From the IMG/VR virus record IMGVR_UViG_3300035492_000180, positions 1,353-65,352 of that record: a stretch of 64,000 bases of DNA; one strand, given 5' to 3'. The DNA comes from a virus. Shown here piece after piece: positions 38,759 to 63,243 of the stretch. How positions within the stretch are numbered: the stretch's first letter is position 1; every line of letters begins with the position of its first letter. The position numbers were made by a program, and so were the translations under genes. The notes beneath the pieces are model-generated. The model made no database searches and was not told where the DNA came from. It saw only the letters and a list, made by a program, of their open reading frames with translations.

Positions 38759-38786
38759 GCGGAAAAACATCCATCTTATATGAAGA
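38759..38786 (+). promoter_or_regulatory. class A motif (putative phage RNAP promoter), copy 1
   Basis: gcg-gaaaaacat-CCATCTTATATG-aaga; intergenic. Confidence 0.7.
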
Positions 38787-39016
38787 CTACCATAAGGTGG
38801 TTAAACAGGAGAGTTATCATGAACACGCAAGCTAGGGACATTGAAGAATTCATCAAATAGGTCGAAGCACAATAACCGAGTGTACAACTCTTTCTAGAGG
38901 ACAATGAGTACCTTTTCAGCAAGCATGTCAAGGAAAAACACGATCTTCTGTTGGAACTTGAGAAAAGGAATATAAAATTCAGCGGCCTTTATGGTCGTGT
39001 TTACAAGAGGTGATAC

Positions 39017-39493
39017 ATGGCGACAGAGTATTATTACAAGAAGTATTGCAAGGTCTGTGGTGTTCTGACGGACTCCTGGAAGATTTCGAAACAATATTTT
39101 GAGTTTCTAAAGAGATCTCCGGGCATCAAGTATCCAGAGGAGCACCCACACACCTGCACATACGATTGGATTTGCGAAAGATGTGCTCCTGATTACTATG
39201 CGGATCCTGAATGGAAAGCACCAGAGCCATTCAAAAGGACACCTCTACCTACGCCGAAGCTTGGAGCTGCGCTTCCTCCCGCTGCACCTGCGCAAAAGCC
39301 GACAGAAACGGCCCAGGTTCCGCCACCAGCAGCCCCGGCAGCTCCCCGGATCAGTCCCCCCAAGCCGCCACTCCGCACCCCGCCTGTGGCCACTCCGGTG
39401 GTCTCTGCCAAACCCGCAACTCCTGAAAAACAGGATAAAATAGCATCAACACCAGCTGCACCTCGTTTCAAAGTTCCTAAACTCAATAAATAA
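39017..39493 (+). CDS. CxxC/CxxC zinc-binding protein with Pro/Ala-rich tail
   Basis: CKVC..CERC, then a PA-rich tail ending RFKVPKLNK. Confidence 0.65.
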   Translation: MATEYYYKKYCKVCGVLTDSWKISKQYFEFLKRSPGIKYPEEHPHTCTYDWICERCAPDYYADPEWKAPEPFKRTPLPTPKLGAALPPAAPAQKPTETAQVPPPAAPAAPRISPPKPPLRTPPVATPVVSAKPATPEKQDKIASTPAAPRFKVPKLNK

Positions 39494-39504
39494 GGAAGTA
39501 AATC

Positions 39505-39723
39505 ATGGCTAACAAAATCACAAAAGTGAACAAAGAAGTTATCGACCGTCTGGCTTGTATTGCAGTCGGCGTAACATATGAAACAGTCCTGAACGTATGG
39601 AAGTGTGCAAGACGCTATAAGAGTTGGGACTTGGATCTCTTCATGGCAGAGCCGCCTGCAGCACGCAGCACGATTTACAAGGTACGCAGGGTTCTTTTTC
39701 TCAGTAAGGTCGAAGGAGTTTGA
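39505..39723 (+). CDS. hypothetical early protein
   Basis: 72 aa with AAGGA RBS. Confidence 0.55.
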   Translation: MANKITKVNKEVIDRLACIAVGVTYETVLNVWKCARRYKSWDLDLFMAEPPAARSTIYKVRRVLFLSKVEGV

Positions 39724-39851
39724 GATGAGTGAATTTGTCAAGCAACTAGTCGATAGTCAGAAACCTACTGAGAGGGTCTCTGACTACCTCTTGGCTGTGG
39801 TTTGTGGTGTTATGCTTTCTTTTCTTGCAGCATCCTTTATCTGAGGCTAAC

Positions 39852-40181
39852 ATGAAAAAGATCATCACAAAGGTTGTCACACTTCTTGCAGCTCTTCTTG
39901 TCTCTTTTAACGCTAATGCAGATCTTTGTGCAGATCTCAGCCAGCATGTGTTGAAACTAGATCGTGGCAGCATGCGTACGATGAGCGATCGTGTCAGGTT
40001 TGAGATCTACAGTAGGGCATTTGAAGACAACAAGGAGCTCTCTGAAGACAGAAAGGTGGTTATGCGATACTTGACTGCAAAGATCGTGGAGGGGGCTATC
40101 TGGAAATTCTCTGATAGAGAAGCCATGTCGTTTGCTTATGAAGAATGCACGTTCTTCAAACAAGCTACTGGTCTGAAGTAA
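39852..40181 (+). CDS. exported protein (signal peptide)
   Basis: MKKIITKVVTLLAALLVSFNANA-D, an AxA cleavage site. Confidence 0.65.
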   Translation: MKKIITKVVTLLAALLVSFNANADLCADLSQHVLKLDRGSMRTMSDRVRFEIYSRAFEDNKELSEDRKVVMRYLTAKIVEGAIWKFSDREAMSFAYEECTFFKQATGLK

Positions 40182-40182
40182 C

Positions 40183-40210
40183 GCGCAGAAACATCCATCT
40201 TATATGAAGA
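40183..40210 (+). promoter_or_regulatory. class A motif, copy 2
   Basis: gcg-cagaaacat-CCATCTTATATG-aaga. Confidence 0.7.
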
Positions 40211-40261
40211 ACACCGAAAGGTATCTTCATTATCATCTTTCTTAAAATCTGGAGTAACATC

Positions 40262-40759
40262 ATGAAAAAGATCACTGTCGTCTCGGCTGTTGTTGCTGTT
40301 ATCGTCTTCATCGTCTCTTTCCTTTACGCAGGCAGCGCTAAGGCAAGTGAATTTACCGATCCCACGTTGGATCCCGTCAGGATCATCCAGCAGCAAAAAA
40401 TCCTTCTGGTTGATTCAACCCTTGAAGAAACGCGTACTTTCAGGTACGCAGCTGGCGCTGTGGGTACTGGTCTAGGAGCTGTGGCTGGCTACTCTGCGGC
40501 TACGGCAGCAGGCGTCAGTGCAGCGCCTGTTGTTGTAAGTGGGGCTATCATCTATGGCGCTGCATTCTATGGTGCCAGCACGCTCGGTGTTGAAGTCGGC
40601 TACCAAATGGTGGCTGATGAGATTCGCGAGAAGCGGGATGCAGCTATTGAGAAGGGGAAGGGTCTTGCGAAAGACCTCCAGCAGGAAGGTAAAGGGCTTC
40701 TCGATCAAGGTAAGGGACTACTCGACCAAGGGGTTGAAAAGTTCAAATCCTGGCTGTAA
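40262..40759 (+). CDS. exported/membrane protein with glycine-rich hydrophobic core and GKGLLDQ repeats
   Basis: Signal peptide ending AKA-S; GAVGTGLGAVAG; C-terminal GKGL repeats. Confidence 0.65.
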   Translation: MKKITVVSAVVAVIVFIVSFLYAGSAKASEFTDPTLDPVRIIQQQKILLVDSTLEETRTFRYAAGAVGTGLGAVAGYSAATAAGVSAAPVVVSGAIIYGAAFYGASTLGVEVGYQMVADEIREKRDAAIEKGKGLAKDLQQEGKGLLDQGKGLLDQGVEKFKSWL

Positions 40760-40767
40760 CGCGAAGG

Positions 40768-40794
40768 AGGGGCACTCGAAAGGGTGCCCTTTTA
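40768..40794 (+). terminator. intrinsic terminator (GAAA loop)
   Basis: aggggcactc-gaaa-gggtgccct-ttt. Confidence 0.7.
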
Positions 40795-40797
40795 ATC

Positions 40798-41001
40798 ATG
40801 GCAAAGAAAGACAGTTCAAAAACATTCATCGTGAGGATGACGACACGTAGTGTAGCACGCTACGATAATTTAGATATTTGGGCACGTGATAAGTTTGATA
40901 TTTGGCTGAAGAAGTTCGAAATAAAAATGTATGAAAAAGGAGCAACTTGGGACGAGAAATTAAAAAGTTTTTTGATAAAGCATCTACCGCAGAAGCCATA
41001 G
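40798..41001 (+). CDS. hypothetical protein
   Basis: 67-aa basic ORF. Confidence 0.45.
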   Translation: MAKKDSSKTFIVRMTTRSVARYDNLDIWARDKFDIWLKKFEIKMYEKGATWDEKLKSFLIKHLPQKP

Positions 41002-41060
41002 ACACTCACTGACCCTTCGGGGTTGGTGGGTGTTCTTTGACTTCCCTTTATTTTTTCTTT
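41002..41060 (+). terminator. long UUCG hairpin upstream of RNAP2
   Basis: acactcactgaccc-ttcg-gggttggtgggtgt, followed by a T-rich tract. Confidence 0.6.
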
Positions 41061-41187
41061 AGGAAAGCTGTATGTATGTAATCCTTTTCCTGCTTGTTAG
41101 AACCGTATTTAAAATAACATCATATATAACAATTTGGTTTCTAATGGTTGGATTTGGATTATATTGCATCTTCAAATTTATAACGGT

Positions 41188-44100
41188 ATGGTAACTTACG
41201 ACACTCTGCTGGAAATAACTAAAGCCAGACTGGAAAGTGATGAAGTGCCTTCGCGCTCACCTATCCGGATACTTCGAGAATTCGATTTAAAGGAGTTGTA
41301 TGATGTTGTAATCCCTGTCGTATATTTGTATACACGCGGGAAGAAGGATGAACCAATCTTCCTTACAGAAGCTGTTTGTGCGATTGGCAGAGCAGTTATG
41401 TCGCATTTCAAACAGAAGAAGGATAGCGGTCTAGCTGCTAAGATTGGTGCATTTCTTCTTTATAGTTTTGAAGTTGCAGGTATCCTTGAAGTTCTAAAAG
41501 CACAAGGTAAGGGGAGGCACGCAGCATATCAAATCATCATAAAGGATGATGCGAGTATTAGGGCATTATGGGAGGCAATTGATGTAACATCCGTTGATAA
41601 GCTACCAAGCGAAACTCCCTTTGCTCCATACTTCACAACCGAGCATGAAACAGGGATGAAGCTGGTTAAGACAAATAACAAGACTGTATTAACCAAGCTG
41701 AACCCTGTGGACAATCCAATTGTGTTCTCTGCCATAAACAAATCCATGGAGACTGGATGGAATGTAAACGTTAAAGTCTTTGATGTGGCTATGTGGGCAT
41801 TGCGTAACAAGACTGAAGCATTTGACGATATTTGGTCTCAACAAAACCCTGAAGCACGAAAGACAAAATTAAGAGAGTCCAGAACTATCCTTGATATTGC
41901 GTTCAGGTTTATCGATAAAACATTTTATCACGCAATGTATTTTGATTTTCGTGGGCGCATTTACACAGCGTCTGCTTTCTTCAACCACCAAGGAAATGAT
42001 CTGTCTAAAGGACTTTTGCTTCGTGCTGACAAAAAGCCAATTACTCGTGAAGGGTTGGATTGGCTATATGTTAGTCTTGCAAATAACTATGCAGGTAGTT
42101 GCAACAGAGAGGATAAAGCAAAGACAGATAAGATTCCTTTAAAAGATCGTATTAAATGGGGTGAAGAAAACGAAGAGATCTTCATTGCGTTTGCAACAGA
42201 TCCAAGGAAGCACCAAGGCTGGATGAAGGCTGACTCACCTTGGCAATTTCTTGCAGCTTGTTTTGAAATAAAGAAGTTTCACGATTGGCAGGAGAAAAAC
42301 AAAGAGGATATCGAATCAGGAAAGATTGATCCATATTCTTTCGAATCTGGTATTGAAGTGTTTATTGATGGCAGTTGCAACGGTAAATGCTTGCCGTTGT
42401 AAAACTACGTGAATTCGGTGGAACACTACATTCGTGTAGTCAATACCGAGCCAAGTTAAATCGGGTGTAACGACTAGTAAGTCCTGTAATAAGGCATACA
42501 CTACAAGCGATCGGTAGTGGAAGCGCGTAGAAGAGTGTCAACAGGTACTCTTAAGATATAGTCTGATCTGCATGGCGACATGCAGCTGTCTGTGGCGGAC
42601 AGGAGTTTTTGATGAAGACCTGGAAGAGTTACAAAGAAAAATATGAAGTATCAAATGAAGGAGACGTCAGGAATAGCGAAACAGGGTTGGTTCTGAAAAA
42701 CAACACTGATAAATACGGCTACCATACTGTAACCCTGTGGCTTGACAAGGTACCCAAGACTTTAAAGGTGCACAGGCTTGTTGCTACGTGTTTTATAGAG
42801 AATCCTGATAACAAGGAACAAGTAAACCATAAAGATGGAAATAAGAAGAACAATTTTGTAAATAATTTAGAATGGTCTACTCCGATTGAAAACATTAGAC
42901 ATGCTTGCGATATGGATCTTCTTCCTAAGGGTTCCTCACATTATGAAGCTGTTCTTACTGAGGAAGACGTCCAGGAAATTCGCTATTTACTTTCTGAAGG
43001 GTATGGAAATTCCTTTATTGGAAATAAGTTTGGAGTAACTTGTGGTGCAATATATGCAATAAGAGTGAATAAATCCTGGCAACACCTGCCTTGGCCGTTT
43101 CCATACAGATTGTTCGAAGCAACAAAGGAAACAAAGCTTGTAGGTAGCCAGAGAAAAGAAGCTAAACTTGATGAGAAGAGAATACGTGAAATAAAAAGAT
43201 TGCTTTCAGACGGCGTATCGATTGCAGTTTTGCAAAAGAAATTTAATATATCAGGTGGGGCGCTTAGATGCATTCGAGCTGGAACCACCTGGAAACACGT
43301 AACTATTTAGCGTCCGCCACGACGGGGAAAGTTTAGCGAACTTTCCTGAACAAAATGAGCCAGCATCTATCAGCACTTACAAAAGATGAAGTTACTGCAC
43401 CGTATGTCAACCTTGTTCCGCAACAAATGCCTGGAGACCTGTATGCGTATGCAGCGAAATTTGTATGGAAACACATTGAAGAAGAAGTAGCAAAACTCGA
43501 CAAGGAAGAGTTTCTGAGGCTATCTACTTTTGTAGATAAGCTTATTTCCTTGAAGAAAGAATACATTACAGCACCACTTAACTCTGATATAAAGAAGCTT
43601 GCATGGAACAATTACCAAGAGTTTAAGAAAGGAAAAGAGAAAGACATCGAAGCAGCTAGTCTTGTCTATTGGGCACGCTTTACTGATGCAAAGGATCGTC
43701 GAAAGCTTTTGAAGCGTGGTACCATGACTATCTCCTATGGGGTTACGAGATATGGTCTTGGAACACAGATTCTCGACGATGCAAAGAAGCATGGCATTGA
43801 ACTCCTGAATTACATGGAGCACAAATGGGGTATCCTTCTGGGCCAGTTGATCTTTGACACTCTGAAAGTATCGATGAGAAGGCCCATGCAACTTCTGCAC
43901 ATTTTTGAGCAAGCAGGTGCAGAAGCTGACGAGCGTGATGAGTTTCTGTCTTGGGAAGTTCCTGTGACAGGGTTTCCTGTTGTTCAACACTATACAGAAG
44001 GTACAACAAAGCAAATCTGGGTTAATTGCTAGCTCAGAATAAACTCCTCTAATTGCTGGGAAACCTAGAACAGGCAATCAGCAGCGAAGCTTAGACAGAT

Positions 44101-45155
44101 ACCTGTCTTTGAACGTTCAACGACTATTCCGAAAGGAAGTACTGAGCGAGTGCTTAGGAAACGGGGAGCAACACGCACGTGTTGAAGATATAGTCTGGTC
44201 TGCATAGGGATATGCAGTTGTTAAATGTCAACGGAGGCAATGATGGAAGAACTGTGGTCTGAGATCATAGAAGATAACTATCTTGTTAGCAGTCTTGGTA
44301 AGGTGTACAGTATCACAAAAGATAAGTTGATGAAAACGCGTTTTGACAAACAAGGCTATGAAGTCCTTGTTCTTCATACAAAAAACGGCGCTGTTAATCG
44401 AAGTGTTCACAGACTTGTTGCAAAAGCTTTTATACCAAACCCTTGTAATTTGCCAATGGTGAATCATATTGATGGCGACAAGACAAATAACATGGTATGC
44501 AACCTAGAATGGAGCACTTCTTCGAGAAACAATCAACATGCTTTTGATACAGGTCTCCGAAAAAGTGGTGAGAATCACCACAAGGCAAAACTTAGTGAGC
44601 AAGACGTCAGAGATATTCAAGTCATGCTCTCAGAGGGTATGCCCCAAAGGGCAATAGCAAAATATTTCCCTGTAGGCAGAACCACAATTGCCAAGATTGC
44701 AAAAGGGCAGATTTGGCGACATTTGACAGAAGAAGATTAACGACCTTCTTTGAACAAAACGACAGTATGGTCCACCTAAGGGTGATAAACTCTCAACAGG
44801 ATATTACGAAAACACTCTTCGTCTTAATGTGAATTTCCATGAGCTTTTGCAAAAGAGCAAAGGAAAGCAGAAGAGTGGAGCTTCTCCTAATTGTATTCAC
44901 AGTTTAGATGCAGCTCATTTGATGCTAACAGTGCACAGGGCCAACTTTAGAATAACAACAATTCATGATAGTTATGGTTGTTTACTAGCAGACATGCCAA
45001 AGCTTTATAAGCTTGTTAGAGAGACTTTTGTAGAGCTCTACAGATCAGACCCGCTAGAAAAACTTCTTCTTCAGATTGGAGGTGATATAAGTCGTATTGA
45101 AACAGGTACACTAGATCTCAATAGTATTCTTGATTCTGAGTTTTCCTTTGCCTGA
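41188..45155 (+). CDS. second T7-like single-subunit RNA polymerase; spliced join(41188..42384,43358..44022,44762..45155), ~750 aa; start uncertain
   Basis: DFRGRIY; PWQFLAAC; spliced motif A IDGSCNG|SQHLSAL; motif B RKLLKRGTMTISYG; SPNCIHSLDAAH; motif C TIHDSYG. Confidence 0.93.
42385..43357 (+). ncRNA. group I intron 3 (973 nt), in motif A of RNAP2
   Basis: P1 caacggU/Gccguug; P3 ctacgtg/cgcgtag; P4 ttcggt/accgag; P7 gacta/tagtc; terminal G at 43357. Confidence 0.92.
42612..43310 (+). mobile_element. intron-encoded HNH homing endonuclease (two HTH-like repeats)
   Basis: YEVSNEGDVR, VHRLVA, VNHKDGNKKNNFVNNLEWST. Confidence 0.9.
44023..44761 (+). ncRNA. group I intron 4 (739 nt), in the specificity-loop region of RNAP2
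   Basis: P1 ucugggU/Gcucaga; P3 ctcctc/ggggag; P4 ttgctg/cagcag; P7 gacta/tagtc; terminal G at 44761; split codon GT|A gives IWV-QYGPPK in frame with ORF 44829. Confidence 0.88.
44240..44740 (+). mobile_element. intron-encoded HNH homing endonuclease
   Basis: YLVSSLGKVY, VHRLVA, VNHIDGDKTNNMVCNLEWST. Confidence 0.9.
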
Positions 45156-45162
45156 GGCGTAT

Positions 45163-45573
45163 ATGAAGATTTTTAAAAACATGGAAGAACTGCGTGAAGG
45201 TCCTGAAGTTATTTACAAGGATTGCGAGAGTGTCCTCAAGCAAATCTCGAAAGATATTGACGAGCCTTATGAAGTGTTGTATAAGGAACCGTTTGAAAAC
45301 ACATTTGGCGGTGATGTTTTCCTTCTTGAATCCTTCAAAGACCAAGGAGAGATTCAGACAACTGTAGAAAATCCTGAAACAGGTCAATGGCGCTCTCTTC
45401 TCGAGACCTCAAGTGCCTTTGATATTTGTGAATGGAAGGGAGAAGACTATCTTCTTGTCTGGTATGCAACAAACAACGCTGGAGGCCCATCCTTCTGGGT
45501 GCCTAAGAGTATTGTTGAAGAAAGTGGTTTTCTACGAGACAGTATTGACAAAACAAAACAGGCATGGGAGTAG
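45163..45573 (+). CDS. hypothetical protein
   Basis: Acidic ORF after RNAP2; GAGG RBS. Confidence 0.6.
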   Translation: MKIFKNMEELREGPEVIYKDCESVLKQISKDIDEPYEVLYKEPFENTFGGDVFLLESFKDQGEIQTTVENPETGQWRSLLETSSAFDICEWKGEDYLLVWYATNNAGGPSFWVPKSIVEESGFLRDSIDKTKQAWE

Positions 45574-45577
45574 TACG

Positions 45578-45904
45578 ATGCAATTCTTCCAAGGAGTGAT
45601 TGATGTAACAGATGCAATACTTGATACAAATTGCTCAGGCTATCTTGAAATCATCGCGAACTATCTCGATTCAAGCGAGATAAACATCTCTTATTCAATC
45701 TTCGAGGACAGCTCAAGGTATGATGACGAAGAGATGTGGCAAATTCCAAAAGAATTTGTATGTCTTTACAATATTCCAAACCTCACCATTTGTAGTCAAG
45801 GAAAATGTCTTAACATCGGTTCTGTATACTTTGGAGTGTACAATAACAAAAAAGTAGTTATTGAACAAAACGCCTCACCTATTCAAGTGTATTGGAGTAA
45901 TTAA
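45578..45904 (+). CDS. hypothetical protein
   Basis: ATG 45578 after GGAG. Confidence 0.5.
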   Translation: MQFFQGVIDVTDAILDTNCSGYLEIIANYLDSSEINISYSIFEDSSRYDDEEMWQIPKEFVCLYNIPNLTICSQGKCLNIGSVYFGVYNNKKVVIEQNASPIQVYWSN

Positions 45905-45905
45905 C

Positions 45906-46127
45906 ATGCAAGTAACGCGTAAGTCTATCATCACTGGTATCGTCAGGACAAAAGAGATTGATATCACTCCTGAAGTTCTCCAGAGATACGAAGAGGGTAT
46001 CGAAACTATTCAGTCTCTCGCCCCTCATCTGTCTGAAAATGACAGGGAATTTATTATGACAGGTATGACTGAAGAAGAATGGAATGAAGCTGTTGGACCT
46101 GATGAGGATGACATGTATCTTTACTAA
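45906..46127 (+). CDS. small conserved phage protein
   Basis: MQVTRKSIITG..REFIMTG.T.EEW. Confidence 0.55.
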   Translation: MQVTRKSIITGIVRTKEIDITPEVLQRYEEGIETIQSLAPHLSENDREFIMTGMTEEEWNEAVGPDEDDMYLY

Positions 46128-46151
46128 AGCACATATTTCTTAGTAGTGAAA

Positions 46152-46168
46152 CCGTCAGTTTAATGACC
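46152..46168 (+). promoter_or_regulatory. class B motif, copy 3, upstream of the SSB/replication operon
   Basis: CCGTCAGTTTAATGACC; intergenic. Confidence 0.6.
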
Positions 46169-46211
46169 GCCGGTCAAAACATCATTCAAAATACGCAAGG
46201 AAACGTTTAAA

Positions 46212-46871
46212 ATGGCTATTCTTAAGAATTGTGAAATCTGGTATGCAAAAGTCGATCCGAAGCGTCCTGACAAGACCTTCGACAAAGAAAATGGACAATG
46301 GACTTGCCAGATTCGGACGAACCGTGTTGAGCAAAAGAACGAGTGGGTTGCTGCTGGTTTGAAGCCGAAGCTTGTGGTGCACAAGAGTGGTGAAGACGAA
46401 GGTACACCTATCCTGGATAAGGATGGCAAGCGTCAATGGCACTGCAGTCTCCAGAAGCGCTGCGTGAAGGCAAGCGGAGAAGCCGCAGAGCCTGTCAAGG
46501 TTGTCGATGGTAATCTGAATGATGTTGACCCGCGTACCATCGGGAACGGCAGTGTTGGTAACATTCGTGTTTTCCAATATGACAGCAAGACGCGTGAAGG
46601 TGAAAAGGTTTCCATGCTCATGGCAATCCAGCTCACTAAGCACAAGGTGTATGAGCCGCGCGGTGAAGCGGAGACCTTCGGTTTTGAAGAGACTGAAGTG
46701 ATCGGGCCGGACACCTCCACTAAGGAGAGTAAAGGCGATAACTTTGAGGATGACGACGCCCCTTTTGATAAAGGGTCTGAAGCACCCGTGAAGAAGCCTT
46801 CTGCACCGCCGAAAAAAGCAGCACCTGCTGCACCGACATCTGCTGACTCGCATCCTGAAGATGCGTTCTAA
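46212..46871 (+). CDS. ssb: single-stranded DNA-binding protein (T7 gp2.5-like)
   Basis: High-expression codon style, IGNGS.GNI motif, acidic tail ending in Phe (HPEDAF); heads the replication module. Confidence 0.7.
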   Translation: MAILKNCEIWYAKVDPKRPDKTFDKENGQWTCQIRTNRVEQKNEWVAAGLKPKLVVHKSGEDEGTPILDKDGKRQWHCSLQKRCVKASGEAAEPVKVVDGNLNDVDPRTIGNGSVGNIRVFQYDSKTREGEKVSMLMAIQLTKHKVYEPRGEAETFGFEETEVIGPDTSTKESKGDNFEDDDAPFDKGSEAPVKKPSAPPKKAAPAAPTSADSHPEDAF

Positions 46872-46877
46872 TTAATA

Positions 46878-46919
46878 AAAGGGAGTAATCTGGACTACAA
46901 TCTAGGTTGCTCCCTTTTT
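46878..46919 (+). terminator. intrinsic terminator
   Basis: aaagggagtaa..ttgctccc-ttttt. Confidence 0.7.
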
Positions 46920-47064
46920 AGTGAAACACTGACGGGATAATCATGACCACAGAGCAGTTGCGTCTTTTCTATAAAATCCTCGACACCAAGAATAGCTGGG
47001 GAAAGAATGAAATCAAGCAAGTTCTTCTTGAAGTGACTTTCGGAATCAGGACAGAGGTATAATC

Positions 47065-47673
47065 ATGAAGTATATTTACGAAACGCATGTAAATAATGTT
47101 CGTATGGCAACAAGCACAAGCTTTGAGCAAGCTCTTGAGGAAGCTGCTAAATATGTCAAAGGCCTTGTCCTTGTGTATGATGCAGAAAAAAGCAGCAATC
47201 TACCAGTCTTTTCGATTGATACAGAAGAGGATGAGGCTGAATGGCGGCGCAAGCTTGAGCAAGACTCTACCTGGATTCGTAAAAAAGCTGCTGTAAAATG
47301 GGATCCGACTAAAGACCTCTTGGATGATCACGTGAAGAAAGAAAAAGGACCTGAAGCTCTGGACATTGATGTTGTTAAAACTAACATCAATCTAGCTGTG
47401 GACCCTTCTCATTACAAAGGGTATATCGAAGAGTTTCAATGGATTGATGCTATGTCGCGGATCCCCACAATGCGCGAGCCAGAGCGATTCATTGCAGCTC
47501 TTGAGATGCAAGTTCGTAAGTATCTAGACCGTCGTGGTCAAAAAGACAAGGACTACCAAGAGATGGGTAAAGCTTTGTTCTATCTTGAGTATCTACGACA
47601 GTTTATTGGGTTCGCATACCATGGCTACGACCGACCAACAGCAGACAGCGTTCATCAAAAACTGAAAGACTAA
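47065..47673 (+). CDS. DUF3310-like protein (T7 gp1.7-like C-terminal domain)
   Basis: VDPSHYK..KYLDRRGQKD..QEMGKALFYLEYL. Confidence 0.7.
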   Translation: MKYIYETHVNNVRMATSTSFEQALEEAAKYVKGLVLVYDAEKSSNLPVFSIDTEEDEAEWRRKLEQDSTWIRKKAAVKWDPTKDLLDDHVKKEKGPEALDIDVVKTNINLAVDPSHYKGYIEEFQWIDAMSRIPTMREPERFIAALEMQVRKYLDRRGQKDKDYQEMGKALFYLEYLRQFIGFAYHGYDRPTADSVHQKLKD

Positions 47674-47682
47674 CCATAAGGC

Positions 47683-55248: not shown

Positions 55249-55259
55249 AAAGGAAAAAT

Positions 55260-57182: not shown

Positions 57183-57197
57183 TTAGTTTCACAACAG

Positions 57198-57226
57198 CCC
57201 CTGGGACATAACTCCCAGGGGTTTTT
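57198..57226 (+). terminator. intrinsic terminator
   Basis: cccctggga-cataac-tcccagggg-ttttt. Confidence 0.75.
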
Positions 57227-57242
57227 AACAGAGGAGCCTTAA

Positions 57243-57452
57243 ATGGTACTAGTTTTCTTCGTACTCTTTTATTTATACGTCATTTATCTTATGGTAACAT
57301 GGATGCACCTAGAACTGTCTTACAGTCAATGGGAGTATTATGTTCAAAAATACTTCAACGGCACTAAATATGAATCGCTGGAAGCTCTACATTCAGCAGA
57401 GAAATCTTATGACATGCTTGTAAAATCTTGGGGCTTTAAAAAGGAGAGTTAA
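57243..57452 (+). CDS. small membrane protein
   Basis: N-terminal hydrophobic helix; GAGGAG RBS. Confidence 0.5.
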   Translation: MVLVFFVLFYLYVIYLMVTWMHLELSYSQWEYYVQKYFNGTKYESLEALHSAEKSYDMLVKSWGFKKES

Positions 57453-57453
57453 A

Positions 57454-57627
57454 ATGAAAATACTTTATTCCAAACTTAATTGTCCCGGTTGTGTTGTAAA
57501 AAAGAATGAGCTCATTAAAGAAGGCGTGGATTTCAAAGAGATCAAGATTGGGGTAGATATCTCAGTTGATGAATTCTTCCAGAAATACCCTGATGTCCGC
57601 TCTGTCCCTTTTGTAGTAGAGGAGTAA
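57454..57627 (+). CDS. glutaredoxin/NrdH-like redoxin (57 aa, missing from ORF track)
   Basis: Manual translation: MKILYSKLNCPGC..RSVPFV; CxxC and cis-Pro motifs; near nrdJ. Confidence 0.8.
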   Translation: MKILYSKLNCPGCVVKKNELIKEGVDFKEIKIGVDISVDEFFQKYPDVRSVPFVVEE

Positions 57628-57721
57628 TCATGCTGCCTAATACTTCTACTATCTTTTTAGAAAATTCCGCTATGAGTTTAATGAAAATGGTGGAAATATC
57701 TATGAGAAGAATATATTAGTC

Positions 57722-58177
57722 ATGTCAACTGCGGGCCAAAACATCATAAATAGAGTAATCTTGGCAATGGCAAATACGCTCAATGAAACACAGCAGCATG
57801 TGAGAGACCTTGAGCGAGCTCTGAAGCATGAGATTCAGTGTGTTGAAGCTTGCAAGGAAAAGCTTAGCAAGAAAGGTTATTACGATCAGCTAAATGAGAA
57901 AGTGAATGATATGATCATTGAAATGAATGAGGATTTATTCACACGTCTTAAAAATGCAGAAACCGCTAATATTATGCTACAGAAAGAAAATGTGCTTCTT
58001 AAGGATGGGTTGGCACAGTCTGAAAAAGAGTTAGAGGAAGCTAGAGGAGAGATTTATAAGCTTCAAGAGACTCCTACAGATAGGGCTCTCTTGATCGAAG
58101 AGCGCGACAAGCTACGTTACAAGCTCGTCTATATGGAGAAAATTCATGCCAGAAACAAGCACGCATTGATAGTTTAG
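57722..58177 (+). CDS. coiled-coil hypothetical protein
   Basis: 151-aa heptad-rich ORF. Confidence 0.55.
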   Translation: MSTAGQNIINRVILAMANTLNETQQHVRDLERALKHEIQCVEACKEKLSKKGYYDQLNEKVNDMIIEMNEDLFTRLKNAETANIMLQKENVLLKDGLAQSEKELEEARGEIYKLQETPTDRALLIEERDKLRYKLVYMEKIHARNKHALIV

Positions 58178-58217
58178 AGAAAGCTCTGGGCGAAATTTAT
58201 TGGAGCAACGACAGCAA

Positions 58218-58606
58218 ATGAAGATGATTTTTACGAAGTAGCTAAAAACAAGCTGAATGAACTCCTCGCTGTAACCCAGGATATTGCAACAGATCCTGCT
58301 GTAAATGGAGGCTATGTACTTGCACCTAATTTCAGAGGATATGCTCTTTTAGGTCTTGGGTAATACGTTATTTATATTTGTGGTGAGAAAGACAATGATT
58401 ATGACGAGTTAGTTATCAGACCTGCCACAACTGTTGAATCGATGACAAGGAAGCTTAATGAGCTTGTCGAAACACAATTAGAATTTATTCCAGTTGAAAA
58501 TATTGCTGTCAGAATTGCTTTCACAAATAAAGCAGCTATTTACAACATTATTACAAGTTTGGTTGTGCTGCGAGATGCTGGAGGTAACACAAATGAACAG
58601 AATTAA
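58218..58606 (+). pseudogene. interrupted ORF (frameshift at T5 run 58228-58232 and in-frame TAA at 58361)
   Basis: Coding-like frame YEVAKNKLNELL..GGYVLAPNFRGYALLGLG*YVIYICGE.. with no in-frame ATG of its own. Confidence 0.45.
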
Positions 58607-58927
58607 AAAAGCTTTTAGAATTCTTGATAAAGGAGAAAGAGTTGTTGTTATAGAACCTCTTTCATTAACCAAAGATGTGAGCAAAGCACTTTTTCTGATG
58701 AATACATTAGATTAGAGTACGGTCTCAAAATATCTTATCATGCTGTTATAAACACAGCACAAAACTTCAAGTCTCAGAAAGAAGATATAGAGAAAGCAAT
58801 TTTTCAATTTCTTTATGGAGAGTTCTTGATGGACCTTAGCGATATCCAAATAACTGTTTACAACAGAGACAATGAGAACGCAATCGCAAAGATCCAAGAG
58901 CTGCTTAAGAAACTAACAGATTGATAT

Positions 58928-58951
58928 GCGTTGTATTATCCATCTTATATG
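58928..58951 (+). promoter_or_regulatory. class A motif, copy 3
   Basis: gcg-ttgtattat-CCATCTTATATG, ~20 nt upstream of AAGGAG and ATG 58972. Confidence 0.65.
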
Positions 58952-58971
58952 GTATCCTAAAGGAGTACAAA

Positions 58972-59319
58972 ATGAAGACACTCGAAACTACCGCACTATT
59001 TTGTGAAGCTTTCTTGAAGCAACAAGAAGTTATTATTCGTTTGAGCAAAGAAATTGAAACACTTTCTGCTCAACTGGAGGAACTCAATGAAATGTATGAA
59101 CAAGAGGAAGCATCGAACCGTATAAGAGGTGCTAATCAGACTAATTATATCGTAGCAGAGGAAGAGGATTCTGAAAACTCTGCATCGGACTGTGCATACA
59201 AGATTATGAAAGAGATCTCAGAGGTTTTTAAAAAGAAGGGTAAATTTAATGGATTGAAATACTCTAGCACAGAGAATGGTAAGCAGCTATTTGTAACAAT
59301 GAGCTTCTCACTAGAATGA
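58972..59319 (+). CDS. hypothetical coiled-coil protein
   Basis: AAGGAG RBS. Confidence 0.6.
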   Translation: MKTLETTALFCEAFLKQQEVIIRLSKEIETLSAQLEELNEMYEQEEASNRIRGANQTNYIVAEEEDSENSASDCAYKIMKEISEVFKKKGKFNGLKYSSTENGKQLFVTMSFSLE

Positions 59320-59759
59320 ACATCTTCTTTGTAGATTGGGATCCTGAAGAAGCAGCGCGCTGTTTGTTTGATAAGCATGTTGTGAAAATGCCTCTTGAAA
59401 CAGCGCAAATACTCTCAACAATCTATGGAGGTCCTTATAAGCCCACTCATGCTAATCATCCTTGTACACTTTGGACAAGAGAAAGGGAAGACAATTATGT
59501 TTGGCTTTGTAAGCATGGTATCGCATTGTGCAATGAATTTACGAGAAGATATGGAAAAATTCACAAATCGAGAGAAGTAATTGAAGAGGCTTTTATTTAT
59601 TATCGTAGGCTAAAACTTAAGAAAGGATGGTCAACTCCAGCTCTTTGCATGCCAGATGAGTTTAAGTCAGATAATATTGTTGAAGCATACAGGTCTTACT
59701 ATCATTCAAAAATCAACATAGCAAAGTGGAAATATGGAAATAAACCTTCATGGTGGTAA
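59316..59759 (+). CDS. pyrimidine-dimer DNA glycosylase family (DenV-like)
   Basis: MNIF..D..AA..L.DKHVVKM.LETAQIL..THANHPC..W motif. Confidence 0.75.
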   Translation: MNIFFVDWDPEEAARCLFDKHVVKMPLETAQILSTIYGGPYKPTHANHPCTLWTREREDNYVWLCKHGIALCNEFTRRYGKIHKSREVIEEAFIYYRRLKLKKGWSTPALCMPDEFKSDNIVEAYRSYYHSKINIAKWKYGNKPSWW

Positions 59760-60009
59760 GTACAAAAAAGTTCTAGACTACCATATAATGGGGATCCCTT
59801 GCAAGATAGGTGTAGTGGATTATCATCATCAACCTGCCTTTAAAGGGTCTCCTCAGTTGTGTTGGTCTGATCTAGATTACTATGGGTATACGGAAATAGA
59901 ATATCTTGTTCTAGACAGAAAAGGATATAAAGCTGATTGGCTTGCAAGAAAAATCGATGAAGACATTGATTCGGAGATCCAGCAATTCATAAAAGAGAGC
60001 TATGATTGA
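59734..60009 (+). CDS. hypothetical protein
   Basis: 91-aa ORF overlapping both neighbours. Confidence 0.5.
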   Translation: MEINLHGGKYKKVLDYHIMGIPCKIGVVDYHHQPAFKGSPQLCWSDLDYYGYTEIEYLVLDRKGYKADWLARKIDEDIDSEIQQFIKESYD

Positions 60010-60911
60010 TGATACGTAGACCTATGCTCGCTCCACAAGAAGACCCGATGAGCTATCCAAAGTTCTTTAAAGACTTGCAGTACCCTCTACTAGCCTCACC
60101 AAAATTTGATGGTATTCGTGGTGTGGTACAAGGTGCTGTAATGTCTAGAACAATGAAACCAATTAGGAGCTATCAAGTACAAGACAGGTATAAAGACCTC
60201 AGATTTTGTGACGGTGAACTAATCATTGGTGAGCCGACGAACCCTGATTGTTATAATCTTTGTCAGTCGCATGTAATGTCTTTCGACAAGCCGCACGAAG
60301 ATCTTCGGTATTATGTGTTCGATTGGACAGAGCATACGAGCCTAGAATTTTACCGAAGGTTAGAGAAGGCTGAGGAGTATGTAAACAAAGTACACGCTTC
60401 GGTAGAAAATCTCTTCTTTGTTCCTCATGTAATTATTGAAAACGAGGACGATCTTTTGTCTTTTGAAGATAAGTGTCTTGAAGAAGGATATGAAGGTATC
60501 ATGGGGAGAGATCCTCTTGGTATTTACAAAGAGGGGCGCGCGACATGGAAACAAGCTCTTATCTTCAAGTTGAAAAGGTTTACAGATGATGAAGGCTTGA
60601 TTGTAGGCTTTGAAGAGGGCACAGAAAACAAAAATGAGCAGGAGACTGATGAGCGTGGTTATGCAAAAAGAAGCAAGGCTAGAGATGGCTTAGTAGCTTC
60701 GGGAATGCTTGGCAAGTTTCTTGTAGACTATAAAGGTCTTTTACTGAAAGTTGCGCCAGGTAATTTTAAACACGAGCAGAGAAAGGAAATATGGGAGCGG
60801 CAAGATGAGTATTTGAACAAGCATCTCAAGTTTAGGTTCTTTGGTTATGGTGTAAAGGATCTCCCTAGATTTCCACGCGCAGTAGGTTTTCGAGATAAAG
60901 AGGACATGTGA
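60006..60911 (+). CDS. ATP-dependent DNA ligase
   Basis: SPKFDGIR (KxDG), DGEL, VFD, EGIM, KLKRF, PRFP motifs. Confidence 0.92.
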   Translation: MMIRRPMLAPQEDPMSYPKFFKDLQYPLLASPKFDGIRGVVQGAVMSRTMKPIRSYQVQDRYKDLRFCDGELIIGEPTNPDCYNLCQSHVMSFDKPHEDLRYYVFDWTEHTSLEFYRRLEKAEEYVNKVHASVENLFFVPHVIIENEDDLLSFEDKCLEEGYEGIMGRDPLGIYKEGRATWKQALIFKLKRFTDDEGLIVGFEEGTENKNEQETDERGYAKRSKARDGLVASGMLGKFLVDYKGLLLKVAPGNFKHEQRKEIWERQDEYLNKHLKFRFFGYGVKDLPRFPRAVGFRDKEDM

Positions 60912-61147
60912 TGAAAAACAAATTTTGTGTTAACTGCAAGCATTTTGACAATTCTGAGGCACCTGTGTGTACGCGTAATGTTGTCTACGATCTTGTCTTT
61001 GGTAAGGTAGTCAGTGGAGAGACATACCCAGCTATTGAGGAAAGGTACCCTGATTCTGGATACTTGGAAAAAGTTTACAGTGTCTCTTCCGATTATACAG
61101 GGCCTTGTGATTTTGAAGGCGGATTCTTTGTACAGAAGGTAGCCTGA
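60908..61147 (+). CDS. small Cys-rich protein
   Basis: CVNCKHF..C..DLVFG..C..EG.FF. Confidence 0.55.
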   Translation: MMKNKFCVNCKHFDNSEAPVCTRNVVYDLVFGKVVSGETYPAIEERYPDSGYLEKVYSVSSDYTGPCDFEGGFFVQKVA

Positions 61148-61380
61148 ATGTCTGAGGAAAAGATTTGCAGAGAATGCAAGTTCTTTGTACACGAAGCTTA
61201 TTGCAGATTTTATGCAAAAGGCATATAGTTACAGGCGAGTTTAAGAACTTCAAGAGTTGCTATGAAATGAGAGGGCTAACTGAAATGTCAAACCTAGATT
61301 ACGATGAGCGTTGTGGAACAGTGGGGAGGTTCTATGAAAAACTTCAAGTTACCAAAACCACTGAACAGCAAAATAGTTGA
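61148..61380 (+). pseudogene. paralogous Cys-rich protein split by a -1 frameshift at ~61216
   Basis: MSEEKICRECKFF..YAK in one frame; RHIVTG..C.E.R..CG..GRFYE in the -1 frame. Confidence 0.45.
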
Positions 61381-61661
61381 GGTTGATGGTATACAATATG
61401 AGAAGCTGCCTTCGGGTGGCTTCTTTATTGAAATAAATCTTGAGAAGACTTTTTGTCTTTGTGGAGAAAGCCTTGAAAGGATCTGTTCGTTCTTCGGCAC
61501 TGACGCATGTCAAGACTTCTACCCAGCCTGTAGAAAGGCGAACATTTATTATCAACCGAAAAGAGACTCAGTTCCTGAGCAAAACAACGCTGGAAGCAAT
61601 CCAACAAAACTTAAAACACCGTCCATTTCTTCGATAACCACACCTAAGATCAGGAAAAAGA

Positions 61662-61859
61662 ATGAGCAATCAAAATAACAAAGAGATTATATCTTCTGAT
61701 GCTTTCGAGGACTTTATTAAAGAAAGAGGCTTCTATGATGCTCAAGAATTTCTCGATGCTTATTATGATAAGTTCATCGAGATGATTGAAACAGGATCAG
61801 CCTATTTCTTTGATGAAGAGAAGGTCCTAATTACGCTTACAATCTTTAAGGAAAAGTAA
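61662..61859 (+). CDS. small acidic hypothetical protein
   Basis: AGGA RBS; coupled to the DHH gene. Confidence 0.5.
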   Translation: MSNQNNKEIISSDAFEDFIKERGFYDAQEFLDAYYDKFIEMIETGSAYFFDEEKVLITLTIFKEK

Positions 61860-61860
61860 A

Positions 61861-62706
61861 ATGCAACGACTAATTGTTTATCACGGACCTACTTGTCTTG
61901 ACGGTCTTATGTCTGCAGCCATTGCAAAGATGCGTTTCCCTCATGCAGAATTTATGGTCGGCCAATATCAGACAGATATTGATATCAATATGTTTAGAGA
62001 TAAGGAAGTGTTCATTCTTGATTTCTCTTATCCTCGCGGGATCATGCGAGAGATTTGTGAAGTTGCTAAGTTTGTATTTTGGGTTGACCATCATAAGTCT
62101 GCAATCGACGCTATGGAGGGGTTTACTCATCAATGCTTCATGCGTAAGGTGAGCATCGAAAGAAGTGGATGTGCTCTTACTTGGGAGTTCCTGTATCCTT
62201 ACGAAGAAATTCCATGGATTGTGAAGTATGTAGAAGATCGGGATATTTGGAAATGGGAATATATTGAAACAGCTGCAGTAACTGCTGCTCTGTATTCATA
62301 TCCTGCAGAGGTTGAAGTGATGTATAATTTCTTGTCTGCTGGTAAAACTCAACTCGATCAGCTTCGGCATGAAGGTAAGGCCTTGCTTCGAGCAAGACAA
62401 AAAGAAATTGAGTTGACGATTAAGTCAGGCTTAACCTTCACACAATGGGATCATGAAGGTGCTGTTTATATGGTGCCTATACTTAATTGCAGTCCTAGTA
62501 TTAGTTCTGAAGTAGGTAATATCTTATCACAAGAGCATCCTTTTGCAGTAATGTGGTTTGACTTCAAAGACTATTGTGGTTGGAGTCTACGTTCAGCAAA
62601 AGAAAATCCAGACCATGTTGATGTAAGCAAGATTGCAATCATTCGGGGAGGTGGTGGGCATAGACACGCCGCCGGTTTTAAAACAGAAAAGCCTACGTTG
62701 TTCTAA
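61861..62706 (+). CDS. DHH/DHHA1 phosphoesterase
   Basis: YHG..CLDG, LDFS, VDHH, SLRS and GGGHRHAAGF motifs. Confidence 0.88.
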   Translation: MQRLIVYHGPTCLDGLMSAAIAKMRFPHAEFMVGQYQTDIDINMFRDKEVFILDFSYPRGIMREICEVAKFVFWVDHHKSAIDAMEGFTHQCFMRKVSIERSGCALTWEFLYPYEEIPWIVKYVEDRDIWKWEYIETAAVTAALYSYPAEVEVMYNFLSAGKTQLDQLRHEGKALLRARQKEIELTIKSGLTFTQWDHEGAVYMVPILNCSPSISSEVGNILSQEHPFAVMWFDFKDYCGWSLRSAKENPDHVDVSKIAIIRGGGGHRHAAGFKTEKPTLF

Positions 62707-62945
62707 TGACTTATTTTCGAAATCATGTTGACTCCGTTGAGGAGAAGTTGTGTTTCTCTCATAGAGAAAGGCGTAAAGGTTCTTATGTATACAAAGTTGA
62801 GAATGGGAGAGCAGATAAGAAACATCAACGATTCTTTTGTCACGAGTGTATCAACAAATATGATCTTTCAGCTTTTGTGATACCCGTCACCCGCCGCCCA
62901 CGTGCTGCACTCTCCGGTACTCGCCAGGAGTGCACAGAAACCTAG
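62706..62945 (+). CDS. hypothetical protein (Cys/His) running into a GC-rich island
   Basis: CFSH..CHEC; C-terminus encoded by GC-rich DNA. Confidence 0.4.
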   Translation: MTYFRNHVDSVEEKLCFSHRERRKGSYVYKVENGRADKKHQRFFCHECINKYDLSAFVIPVTRRPRAALSGTRQECTET

Positions 62946-63107
62946 CAGGTTGGGCCAGGGCCAGGCGCGGAGCACAGCGGGATGGCTCGGGTATCACCGG
63001 CACCCTGCGGCCCGCCTGCGCCCACTCTGCGCATCTGGGAGGCACCCGCCTAACTAGATGATCTATATCAAAATTTTAGAGGTTGAAATGCGCCAGTAAA
63101 GCCGAAG

Positions 63108-63124
63108 CCGTCAATTTAATGACC
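63108..63124 (+). promoter_or_regulatory. class B motif, copy 4
   Basis: CCGTCAATTTAATGACC, followed by a cccctaga..tctagggg hairpin. Confidence 0.55.
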
Positions 63125-63215
63125 CCTAGATAGCTATAATGCCTTCTAGGGGTAAACATTTAAAAGTTTCAGGTGAGAGTAATACACTTTCACCTTCCTC
63201 TGGTGAATCTCCAAC

Positions 63216-63243
63216 GCGGAGAAACACCCATCTTATATGGAGA
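63216..63243 (+). promoter_or_regulatory. class A motif, copy 4
   Basis: gcg-gagaaacac-CCATCTTATATG-gaga. Confidence 0.7.

Follow-up and report, generated by a model that had tools for sequence, protein, structure and literature searches.

T7 and SP6 promoters consist of an upstream recognition block, a TATA-like melting block and a G start with GAAGA. In the Autographiviridae phages T7, T3 and SP6 these promoters are directional duplex elements of ~23-28 bp, present as few repeats per genome on the coding strand, and are read by a cognate T7-like polymerase that the podovirus encodes as a free early-gene product; the leaders transcribed from them open with a stem-loop. In N4 (Schitoviridae), the virion RNA polymerase gp50 is delivered with the DNA and reads a small number of early promoters, which take the form of DNA hairpins (stem of 5-7 bp, loop of 3 nt) upstream of the start and are used on single-stranded templates. 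The N4 enzyme is part of a 3,500-aa protein, its gene lies among the late genes, and another phage polymerase, a heterodimer encoded among the early genes, takes over from it.

The phage analyzed here (IMG/VR record IMGVR_UViG_3300035492_000180, of which a window of 64,000 nucleotides, the whole stretch under analysis, supplies the coordinates used below) encodes two T7-like polymerases:

14722..21126, + strand: fusion of a MuF (minor head protein) domain with a T7-like RNA polymerase, gene with two group I introns
41134..45155, + strand: RNAP2, a free T7-like single-subunit RNA polymerase, PF00940 on three exons

The MuF domain of the fusion matches PF04233 (E=4e-18), and the T7-like polymerase domain that an earlier note on this DNA had placed in the same ORF was recovered as phrog_414 (E=3e-7, residues 846-1051). 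Since it is fused to MuF and its gene sits in the portal/head operon, we infer that this polymerase would be carried in the virion. The RNAP2 gene is interrupted by two group I introns with HNH ORFs (exons ~41134-42402, 43355-44022 and 44762-45155), and its PF00940 matches have E values of about 1e-19 to 1e-21. Among the papers searched, we found no description of a MuF-fused polymerase, nor of the motif described below.

The earlier note had drawn attention to a repeated 12-mer, CCATCTTATATG, as a candidate early promoter. Scanning the whole 65,870-bp record, we found exact copies at 38771, 40195, 58940 and 63228 and no fifth copy; the four are intergenic, as it had stated, and share the + strand. 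GCG indeed precedes the 12-mer by exactly 9 nt in all four copies, a combination that produced 0 matches in 100 dinucleotide-preserving shuffles, and AAACAY abuts the 5' side of the core at three of them, being replaced by TATTAT at 58940. The repeat itself is therefore real, but the 12-mer does not delimit it: its positions 1-2 (CC here) vary among relatives, where GT is commonest, so that the invariant core is the 10-mer ATCTTATATG, and the conserved unit is a longer one of 28 bp, spanning -24 to +4 with the final G as +1. This two-part unit, which we term class A, is laid out as T-GCG-S-AAAA, five loosely conserved bases, and then ATCTTATATG-A. Its copies, all on the coding strand, and the hairpin preceding the first of them are as follows:

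38708..38744, + strand: terminator-like hairpin with U-run (-19.7 kcal/mol, z -4.9), at the end of the tail-gene operon and immediately before site 1
38758..38785, + strand: class A site 1, -24 to +4 being TGCGGAAAAACATCCATCTTATATGAAG; predicted start G 38782
40182..40209, + strand: class A site 2, CGCGCAGAAACATCCATCTTATATGAAG; predicted start G 40206
58927..58954, + strand: class A site 3, TGCGTTGTATTATCCATCTTATATGGTA; predicted start G 58951
63215..63242, + strand: class A site 4, CGCGGAGAAACACCCATCTTATATGGAG; predicted start G 63239

Site 1, the closest of the four to the family consensus, lies 58 nt past the stop at 38701, behind the terminator-like hairpin, and site 2 lies 2 nt past the stop at 40181, with the start codon of RNAP2 928 nt farther downstream. 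Site 3 is 21 nt ahead of an AAGGAG-ATG start at 58972, and site 4 is 55 nt ahead of the ATG at 63294; as listed, a TTG ORF (58921-59319) overlaps the former and an ATG ORF (63237-63863) the latter, only because the ORF lister picks the first possible start. The copy at site 3 is particular to this phage's lineage, and its upstream half is degenerate, with the GCG retained and the A-run gone.

The genes behind the sites are:

38819..41001, + strand: putative early genes of sites 1 and 2, a set of small ORFs
38819-38860, + strand: micro-ORF of 13 codons with a strong SD
39017-39493, 39505-39723, 39804-40181, 40262-40759 and 40798-41001, + strand: small ORFs behind sites 1 and 2
58972..63061, + strand: genes behind site 3, comprising ORF 58972-59319, a DNA-binding protein (phrog_624), a DNA ligase, a DHH phosphoesterase and small ORFs
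63294..63863, + strand: first gene behind site 4, with RBS AAAGGAAAA and ATG at 63294

They had been described as small and non-structural, which holds for most of them, and they lack PHROG matches; the exceptions are the DNA-binding protein, ligase and DHH phosphoesterase behind site 3. No gene in 38819..41001 matched a PHROG family at E<=0.001 or had a homologue in 7 complete relatives. The genes directly behind the sites, being small, hypervariable and without homologues in these relatives, fit typical early genes. The first gene behind site 4 has homologues at 37-44% in four genomes (G003, G009, G021 and G028), where it is not linked to the promoter.

Conservation in relatives, the lack of which the earlier note had named as an outcome speaking against a promoter, is clearly present. 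Related IMG/VR contigs, from dozens of uncultured relatives with polymerases only ~30-57% identical, carry the 10-mer unchanged at 93 distinct sites; the carrier contigs have RNAP2 homologues of 29-52% identity, every complete carrier also encodes the MuF polymerase (46-59%), and no complete relative lacks either enzyme. The TATAT block and the G after it do not vary over the 93 sites, GCG occupies -23 to -21 in 85-91 of them, A is found at +2 in 85 and C never at +2 to +4, while the positions flanking the unit carry about 0 bits. The carriers come from many environments, with 40-46% GC in 8 complete genomes. Contigs holding parts of this very phage are fragmentary wastewater contigs only, with no RNA run among them. 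That two sites lie upstream of RNAP2, as had been noted, is borne out, and the arrangement is kept: a class A copy precedes RNAP2 on the coding strand by 0.8-4.3 kb (median 1.5 kb) in 36/38 relatives' loci, and none was found on the opposite strand in 465 kb of these loci or within the ~7 kb that follow the start of RNAP2. Class A sites stand 20-250 nt before start codons, with a fixed spacing to ribosome-binding sites (20-70 nt) at most of them.

At the level of sequence, class A has the marks of a T7-type promoter: it is a directional, repeated, intergenic element with an A/T block and a G start, in genomes that encode cognate T7-like polymerases. Like the promoters of T7, T3 and SP6, it is a duplex element of similar length on the coding strand, combining an upstream recognition part, an A/T melting block and a G with a purine-rich start (compare SP6, ...CTATAGAAGAG). 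It differs from them in being unrelated in sequence upstream of -5, in placing T-GCG-S-AAAA at -24 to -16, farther upstream than the T7 A/T-rich element (-17 to -13) and set apart from the core by three unconstrained positions, in occurring in only 2-4 copies per genome, in its likely reader, the capsid-fused polymerase of a siphovirus instead of a free early-gene enzyme, and in being far more conserved relative to polymerase divergence. By strand, intergenic position, T7/SP6-like architecture and near-invariance over 93 sites in relatives with diverged flanks and proteins, the promoter reading put forward in the earlier note is strongly supported, and the class A copies almost certainly mark where one of the two phage-encoded RNA polymerases begins transcription.

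The predicted leaders resemble those of the T7 group as well. Three hairpins were predicted at the 5' ends of the transcripts of this phage:

38785..38802, + strand: site 1 transcript, predicted hairpin of 7 bp in the 5' leader (-8.5 kcal/mol)
40206..40228, + strand: site 2 transcript, predicted hairpin at the very 5' end with pairing from +1 (-8.0 kcal/mol, z -3.0)
63239..63267, + strand: site 4 transcript, predicted hairpin at the very 5' end with pairing from +1 (-9.8 kcal/mol, z -2.1)

Folding revealed no stable leader hairpin at site 3, which may be a weak site, given this and its degenerate upstream half. Pairing began at +1 in 41 of the 71 stably folding predicted leaders, and 5-bp stems starting at +1 were found at 31% of class A sites (13% after shuffling); class A transcripts would often open with a stem-loop that would shield the 5' end. 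By contrast, the DNA hairpins that mark N4 early promoters are missing: an N4-type hairpin (5-bp stem and 3-nt loop within -30 to -1) was found at 1/93 sites, compared to 2.8 expected after shuffling, and the invariant bases are not self-complementary.

We next turn to the question of which polymerase reads class A, which involves a second motif, class B:

2125..2136, + strand: class B motif CCGTCAGTTTAA, preceding the operon of the terminase, portal and MuF-RNAP genes
21440 (scaffold, capsid, tail), 46152 (replication) and 63108: further class B copies

In this genome no class B site lies between the class A sites and RNAP2, and here as in the relatives' loci RNAP2 always follows class A without an intervening class B. 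One class B site is found 120 nt upstream of class A site 4, so the unit behind it may be read by both polymerases. The specificity loops of the two enzymes were located by MAFFT alignment to T7, anchored on the PNxxHS / VNGNHS motif. In 8 genomes, the equivalent loop of the MuF polymerase has a constant 60 aa with 62% mean identity; that of RNAP2 has 51 or 39 aa and 38% identity. Canonical class B (CCGTTAnnTTAA) tracks the canonical RNAP2 loop (28/32 vs 1/7, p=4e-4), in a test confounded by phylogeny in that odd RNAP2 loops belong to lineages which are simply the more distant ones, whereas the presence of class A is independent of RNAP2 loop type (39 loci, p=0.65). RNAP2 loop and class B vary together, and class A and the MuF-polymerase loop stay constant.

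These patterns bear on the most serious alternative, namely that class A is a middle-gene or autoregulatory promoter for the free RNAP2, with the MuF polymerase reading class B or an unrecognized signal. Of the two enzymes RNAP2 is closer to that of T7, and class A is laid out like a T7/SP6 promoter; site 3 precedes genes of DNA metabolism (DNA-binding protein, ligase), which in T7 fall into the phage-polymerase classes, and self-amplifying polymerase genes are conceivable. Yet the first RNAP2 would have to be made by another route, an injected MuF polymerase acting on class B would transcribe structural genes first, and it is class B, not class A, that follows the RNAP2 loop. Moreover, class A is identical in the three genomes in which this loop is 12 aa shorter and rewritten (G002, G009 and G031); in two of these, G002 and G031, where the core is retained despite loop remodelling, the upstream GCG is kept in the former and degenerate at both sites of the latter. 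We consider this alternative unlikely. On gene order and the covariation argument, the MuF polymerase is favoured over RNAP2, and the reader of class A is probably the polymerase carried in the virus particle. Taken together, we find it reasonably likely that the four sites are duplex promoters for a phage single-subunit (T7-type) RNA polymerase, most likely the MuF-fused polymerase domain.

In the mechanism that we propose, the MuF-fused polymerase would be packaged in the capsid and ejected along with the DNA, would bind T-GCG-S-AAAA (-24 to -16) and G-S-Y-ATCT (-12 to -6), melt the A/T block TATAT (-5 to -1) and initiate at the invariant G, the first transcribed bases being rich in purines (GAAG, GATA or GGAG). 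The resulting transcripts would carry the fast-evolving small early genes and RNAP2, which would then read class B ahead of the replication and structural operons, the MuF-polymerase gene included. The logic would be shared with N4, in which an enzyme delivered with the DNA likewise reads few early promoters and gives way to a second, early-encoded polymerase, its own gene being late; here, however, the first polymerase is fused to MuF, the second is a single T7-like chain, and no host-polymerase step is evident. In its broadest form, to which we give somewhat better than an even chance, class A would be the recognition sequence of uncharacterized capsid-delivered MuF-fused T7-like RNA polymerases, a duplex promoter of two parts and 28 bp whose additional GCG-A4 block occupies -24 to -16, essentially frozen while the proteins diverged to 30-55% identity, and would together with class B and RNAP2 provide host-polymerase-free transcription of the whole genome in a large siphophage family.

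Class A might instead be no promoter at all and serve as an operator for a DNA-binding regulator of the phage, as a signal for RNA processing or as a recombination hotspot at the borders of exchangeable early-gene cassettes. The sites do flank hypervariable ORFs, and the contig of one related wastewater strain ceases matching at 38822, ~40 nt past site 1. In T4-type phages, mobile promoter-stem-loop units stand at such cassette borders. A border role is nevertheless compatible with a promoter, and in T4 depends on one, and the single orientation, fixed RBS distance, G with purine-rich run and hairpins from +1 all point to initiation, leaving this reading improbable. Marginally less probable still is an unusual strong early promoter of the host RNA polymerase, alone or with a phage factor, for although many phages use the host enzyme for early genes and the core is A/T-rich, no sigma-70 match (-35 TTGACA, -10 TATAAT, 16-18 bp spacing) overlaps any of the four sites and regional hits are at shuffle level, the key -11 A or -7 T is missing from TTATAT and TATATG, G at +1 and ATCT (-9 to -6) equal the A/T block in invariance, a 28-bp element invariant over contigs of many environments and 40-46% GC is unlike host promoters, and a two-polymerase phage hardly needs the host enzyme.

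If our preferred reading of class A as the promoter of the MuF polymerase is true, it would be the first defined promoter for MuF-fused virion polymerases, could supply a new orthogonal polymerase-promoter pair for synthetic biology, and would give a simple sequence marker for annotating the early region and operons in this phage family. A near-invariant promoter beside fast-evolving early genes and a drifting class B is an unusual evolutionary pattern, and the invariance suggests strong constraint on an enzyme that must act immediately upon cell entry.

A cultured relative, roseophage DSS3_VP1 (NC_055826, Naomviridae), has the same genome layout and both polymerases, which are only 28-30% identical to those of this phage; neither polymerases nor promoters are mentioned in the founding paper of the Naomviridae. 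Three copies of GTGAGAAAACTAAGG-CATCTATAATGA stand ahead of its small-gene block with the polymerase gene and one more ~30 kb on, and ATAGGGTGCGTTAAAGAGGGGG occurs nine times, ahead of middle and late operons in the manner of class B in this phage. The register of the first motif is the same (ATCT, five A/T, then G), but its core differs at 3/5 melting-block positions (ATAAT vs TATAT here) and its upstream half reads GTGAG-AAAA instead of GCGS-AAAA; the perfect TATAAT that it contains leaves some room for the host polymerase. Having both motif classes in diverged form, DSS3_VP1 offers a cultured test system in its host Ruegeria pomeroyi, making the proposed two-polymerase relay directly testable with two short DNA elements and two enzymes.

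The genes of the window lie on one strand only, in the order listed below, which was obtained from PHROG and Pfam scans.

Gene order and motifs in the window (class A, a two-part 28-bp element with a 12-mer core; class B, a second motif class; RNAP2, a free T7-like single-subunit RNA polymerase).
5' of 2125: small ORFs
2125-2136: class B motif, before HNH endonuclease, terminase, tail protein, endolysin, portal and MuF fusion
14722 to ~21126: MuF minor head protein fused to a T7-like polymerase domain (the MuF polymerase), at the end of the terminase-portal block
21440-21451: class B motif, before scaffold, capsid, tape measure and tail genes (block end 38701)
38771 and 40195, plus strand: class A sites 1 and 2, then small unknown ORFs and RNAP2
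41134-45155: RNAP2
46152-46163: class B motif, then nucleotide kinase, DNA polymerase, exonuclease, primase-helicase and ribonucleotide reductase
58940, plus strand: class A site 3, then DNA-binding protein, ligase and DHH phosphoesterase
63108-63119, class B motif, and 63228, plus strand, class A site 4: then small ORFs

Residues 846-1051 of the MuF ORF match a PHROG RNA polymerase family (E=3e-7), and a phmmer search of its C-terminal part against the PDB gave no match. The closest GenBank phage is EBPR siphovirus 1 (55% identity in the MuF protein), followed by the roseophages DSS3_VP1 and DSS3_PM1 (Naomviridae, 28-30%) and then by the more remote Pelagibacter phage Kolga. Both polymerase genes are split by group I introns that carry HNH ORFs, whereas the MuF-polymerase homologues of the related contigs G003 and G028 are free of introns. 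For RNAP2 we used the splice junction 44022|44762, which brings back the family consensus IWV|QYGPP within the specificity loop and is consistent with a joint in a contig of a related strain. In this contig, ~92% identical over two pieces, 44020 is connected to 44762 with 2 nt intervening; the run of origin is labelled RNA-Seq but is perhaps DNA, and the joint represents either an intron-less allele or spliced RNA of the fourth intron.

The earlier note had reported an exact 12-mer at four intergenic positions, each with GCG at a fixed distance and three with AAACAY before the core, and all of this was borne out. CCATCTTATATG occurs exactly at 38771, 40195, 58940 and 63228, always on the plus strand, with GCG exactly 9 nt 5' of it in all four copies and AAACAY before the core in three, and all four sites are intergenic, given realistic start codons. 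The complete 65,870-bp virus record, of which the window is bases 1353-65352, holds no further copy of the 12-mer, and the 24-nt pattern GCG-N9-12mer had no occurrence in 100 dinucleotide-preserving shuffles.

The same pattern was found at 47 loci in a scan of IMG/VR. Some 20 come from a single unrelated lineage that carries the 24-mer within conserved coding sequence (GAGACAGAGAGACAATGCAC...) and were left out, as were a few single chance matches (loci L013, L017, L019, L025 and others). About 25 of the 47 resemble the sites of the window, with the form GCG[C/G]AAA-N5-CCATCTTATATGA located 30-45 nt 5' of a ribosome-binding site, often two or three times per contig. All 13 contigs with such sites encode an RNAP2 homologue (31-52% identity), and all four of them that are at least 95% complete encode a MuF polymerase (48-57%). 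Searching for related loci with the single protein of RNAP2 exon 1 gave no match, and a profile search with an alignment of nine RNAP2 homologues yielded 80 more loci, in which GTATCTTATATG is the most frequent form (51 sites), then the CC, GC and TC variants; roughly 590 related contigs are reported by this search. Because the leading dinucleotide varies among relatives, the invariant core is ATCTTATATG. Covariation of this dinucleotide (CC, GT, GC or TC, at -11/-10) with either polymerase was dropped as an approach because single genomes mix variants (loci L084 and L088).

We then compiled a logo from 93 distinct sites, selected only by the 10-mer and an RNAP2-family contig, and numbered from the final G of the motif as +1. 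Its upstream half is A/T-rich from -28 to -25, with T/C at -24, GCG from -23 to -21 (85-91 of 93 sites), G/C at -20 and AAAA from -19 to -16; positions -15 to -13 are unconstrained. The core follows with G at -12, G/C at -11, T/C at -10, ATCTTATAT from -9 to -1 and G at +1, and the start continues with A at +2 (85/93), A/T at +3 and A/G at +4. Outside these limits the information is close to zero. Upstream sequence of 3.5 kb or more was available at 38 loci, and 36 of them carry one to three coding-strand copies 0.8-4.3 kb (median 1.5 kb) before RNAP2, and one of the two exceptions has a copy with one mismatch. At these loci, no copy was found on the opposite strand in 465 kb or within ~7 kb downstream of the RNAP2 start, and complete genomes hold a total of two to four copies. 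Contigs flagged with direct terminal repeats were rejected as a guide to the genome end that enters first, because their starts differ in genome position.

Class A is very probably a promoter for a phage polymerase, since it is directional, intergenic and a short distance before ribosome-binding sites, and since its general build is that of T7 and SP6 promoters, in which a recognition part is followed by an A/T block and then by a G that opens a purine-rich start. By every sequence-level criterion it would count as a T7-type promoter, and its start resembles the purine-rich start of the SP6 promoter, TATAGAAGAG. Three features set it apart from T7-type promoters: a GCG-A4 block lies far upstream, copies are few, and the sequence is nearly invariant in a family with polymerases only 30-57% identical. 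Class A is structurally unlike the N4 early promoter, and an N4-type upstream hairpin was seen at 1 of 93 sites, compared with 2.8 expected. No sigma-70-like site overlaps any of the four copies in the window, and matches in the region are at chance level. Literature searches with the 10-mer returned unrelated papers only, and none was found on the promoters of the family.

The sequences behind the motif also bear on where transcripts begin. Counted from the G, the first 30 nt have a mean folding energy of -3.45 kcal/mol, compared with -1.63 kcal/mol in shuffles, whereas +31 to +60 folds no better than shuffles. Pairing begins at exactly +1 in 41 of 71 stably folding leaders, and 5-bp stems beginning at +1 occur at 31% of sites compared with 13% of shuffled ones, an excess that is absent by +6, with stems depleted at -6 to -3. 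The stem sequences vary among phages (GAAGAGA...TCTCTTC, GATAGAC...GTCTATC, GATAAGC...GCTTATC), and it is the structure of the leader that is kept, not its sequence. A 5'-terminal stem-loop is expected where a stable transcript begins, and the 5'-terminal position of these stem-loops thus supports a start at or adjoining the G. Such a hairpin is present in three of the four leaders in the window (z -2.1 to -3.0), and site 3 is without one. The tail operon is closed, directly before site 1, by a strong hairpin with a U-run (-19.7 kcal/mol, z -4.9). Positions 38200-46400 of the window were found in four runs of one wastewater study (8-12% of words, in short contigs of relatives 90-99% identical), which reveal no start of a transcript, and among the listed runs no RNA run contained this stretch.

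In the window, class B reads CCGTCA[G/A]TTTAA followed by a G/C-rich hairpin, and it heads the replication operon and both structural operons, the MuF-polymerase gene included. Relatives have CCCGTTAAnTTAACCC at syntenic positions, and the class B sequence varies with the specificity loop of RNAP2. The core lies within a 57-nt repeat, 93% identical between 2098-2154 and 21413-21469, and each copy is separated from the first gene by a long non-coding leader rich in A/T. No class B equivalent was identified in the related contigs G002, G009, G011 and G031; in G002 the recurrent TAAGCTTA was rejected as a class B signal, being a palindromic word mostly within genes.

To assign loops, both enzymes were aligned to T7 RNAP, with the equivalents of its specificity loop placed by alignment alone and anchored directly behind by PNxxHS in RNAP2 and VNGNHS in the MuF polymerase. 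Across eight complete genomes, the MuF polymerase loop is always 60 residues long, with a mean pairwise identity of 62% (minimum 50%); the RNAP2 loop has 51 or 39 residues and 38% identity (minimum 10%). In G002, G009 and G031 the RNAP2 loop is shortened and rewritten, canonical class B is absent and the class A core is kept, and in the window RNAP2 has a deviant strand (NTLRLNVNFHEL vs NTLQLAICFIED), class B is deviant and class A canonical. Among 39 distinct RNAP2 proteins, whose lineages are not independent, canonical class B accompanies 28 of 32 canonical loops and 1 of 7 others (Fisher p=4e-4), and class A presence is unrelated to loop type (25/32 vs 5/7, p=0.65). Since class B tracks the RNAP2 loop and class A does not, a pairing of class A with the MuF polymerase and of class B with RNAP2 is favoured. 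In every case RNAP2 is downstream of class A and the interval is free of class B sites, so RNAP2 cannot read first unless some other enzyme or source supplies it. We consider it somewhat probable that the MuF polymerase reads class A as the early class. One idea, by analogy with the known behaviour of MuF/SPP1 gp7-type proteins (PMC5512222), is that this polymerase may reside in the particle. The delivered polymerase would then act first and the second phage polymerase after it, an order like that of the N4 programme.

DSS3_VP1, a cultured roseophage of Ruegeria pomeroyi DSS-3, has the same layout as the window genome, and its MuF-polymerase protein (gp108) is 1,463 aa long. It carries GTGAGAAAACTAAGG-CATCTATAATGA three times (35810, 36257 and 67794), the first two directly 3' of the tape-measure gene and 5' of a block of small genes ending in a polymerase gene, and ATAGGGTGCGTTAAAGAGGGGG nine times, before the terminase, portal, tail and replication blocks. 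Its former motif shares with class A the register ATCT, five A/T, G, and the putative start would be the G of CATCTATAATG. The founding paper of the Naomviridae mentions neither polymerases nor phage promoters (PMC8323127). EBPR siphovirus 1 showed class B-like sites only, at syntenic positions, and its partial record stops before the early region. Kolga encodes a 633-aa MuF protein, too short for a polymerase domain, and a free polymerase; no class A-like motif was seen in it, but its 30% GC and large distance make the absence uninterpretable. A nucleotide kinase beside the DNA polymerase is common to the window (47065-47673) and uracil-DNA Naomviridae (NC_055826, 47637-48511), and if the window phage also has U for T, the enzyme reading the promoter would meet a dU-containing element.

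For the ORFs immediately after sites 1-3, seven complete relatives contain no homologue, whereas they do for the replication genes. Such a pattern is typical of early host-takeover genes. In a related wastewater strain, contigs follow the window through site 1 and the leader hairpin and diverge completely at 38822, which suggests that early-gene cassettes are exchangeable and that the promoters mark their borders. The 235-nt leader from site 1 to the first long ORF holds a 13-codon micro-ORF (38819-38860, MNTQARDIEEFIK) with a strong AGGAG site. That first long ORF (39017-39493) is rich in Cys at its N-terminus (CKVCG...CERC) and has a long tail rich in Pro and Ala, with no family match and no homologue in the seven relatives. 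A G/C-rich hairpin of 15 bp with no clear U-run (41001-41034) lies after the last small early ORF and ahead of the RNAP2 start codon; it may act as an attenuator, as a terminator for a phage polymerase or as a site of processing that controls the level of RNAP2. In G002 (IMGVR_UViG_3300046714_000065), a long array of ~36-nt repeats (…AGTAACCCAA…) occupies ~42.7-44.4 kb in coding orientation, within apparently non-coding DNA located between the first class A site and the site pair before RNAP2.
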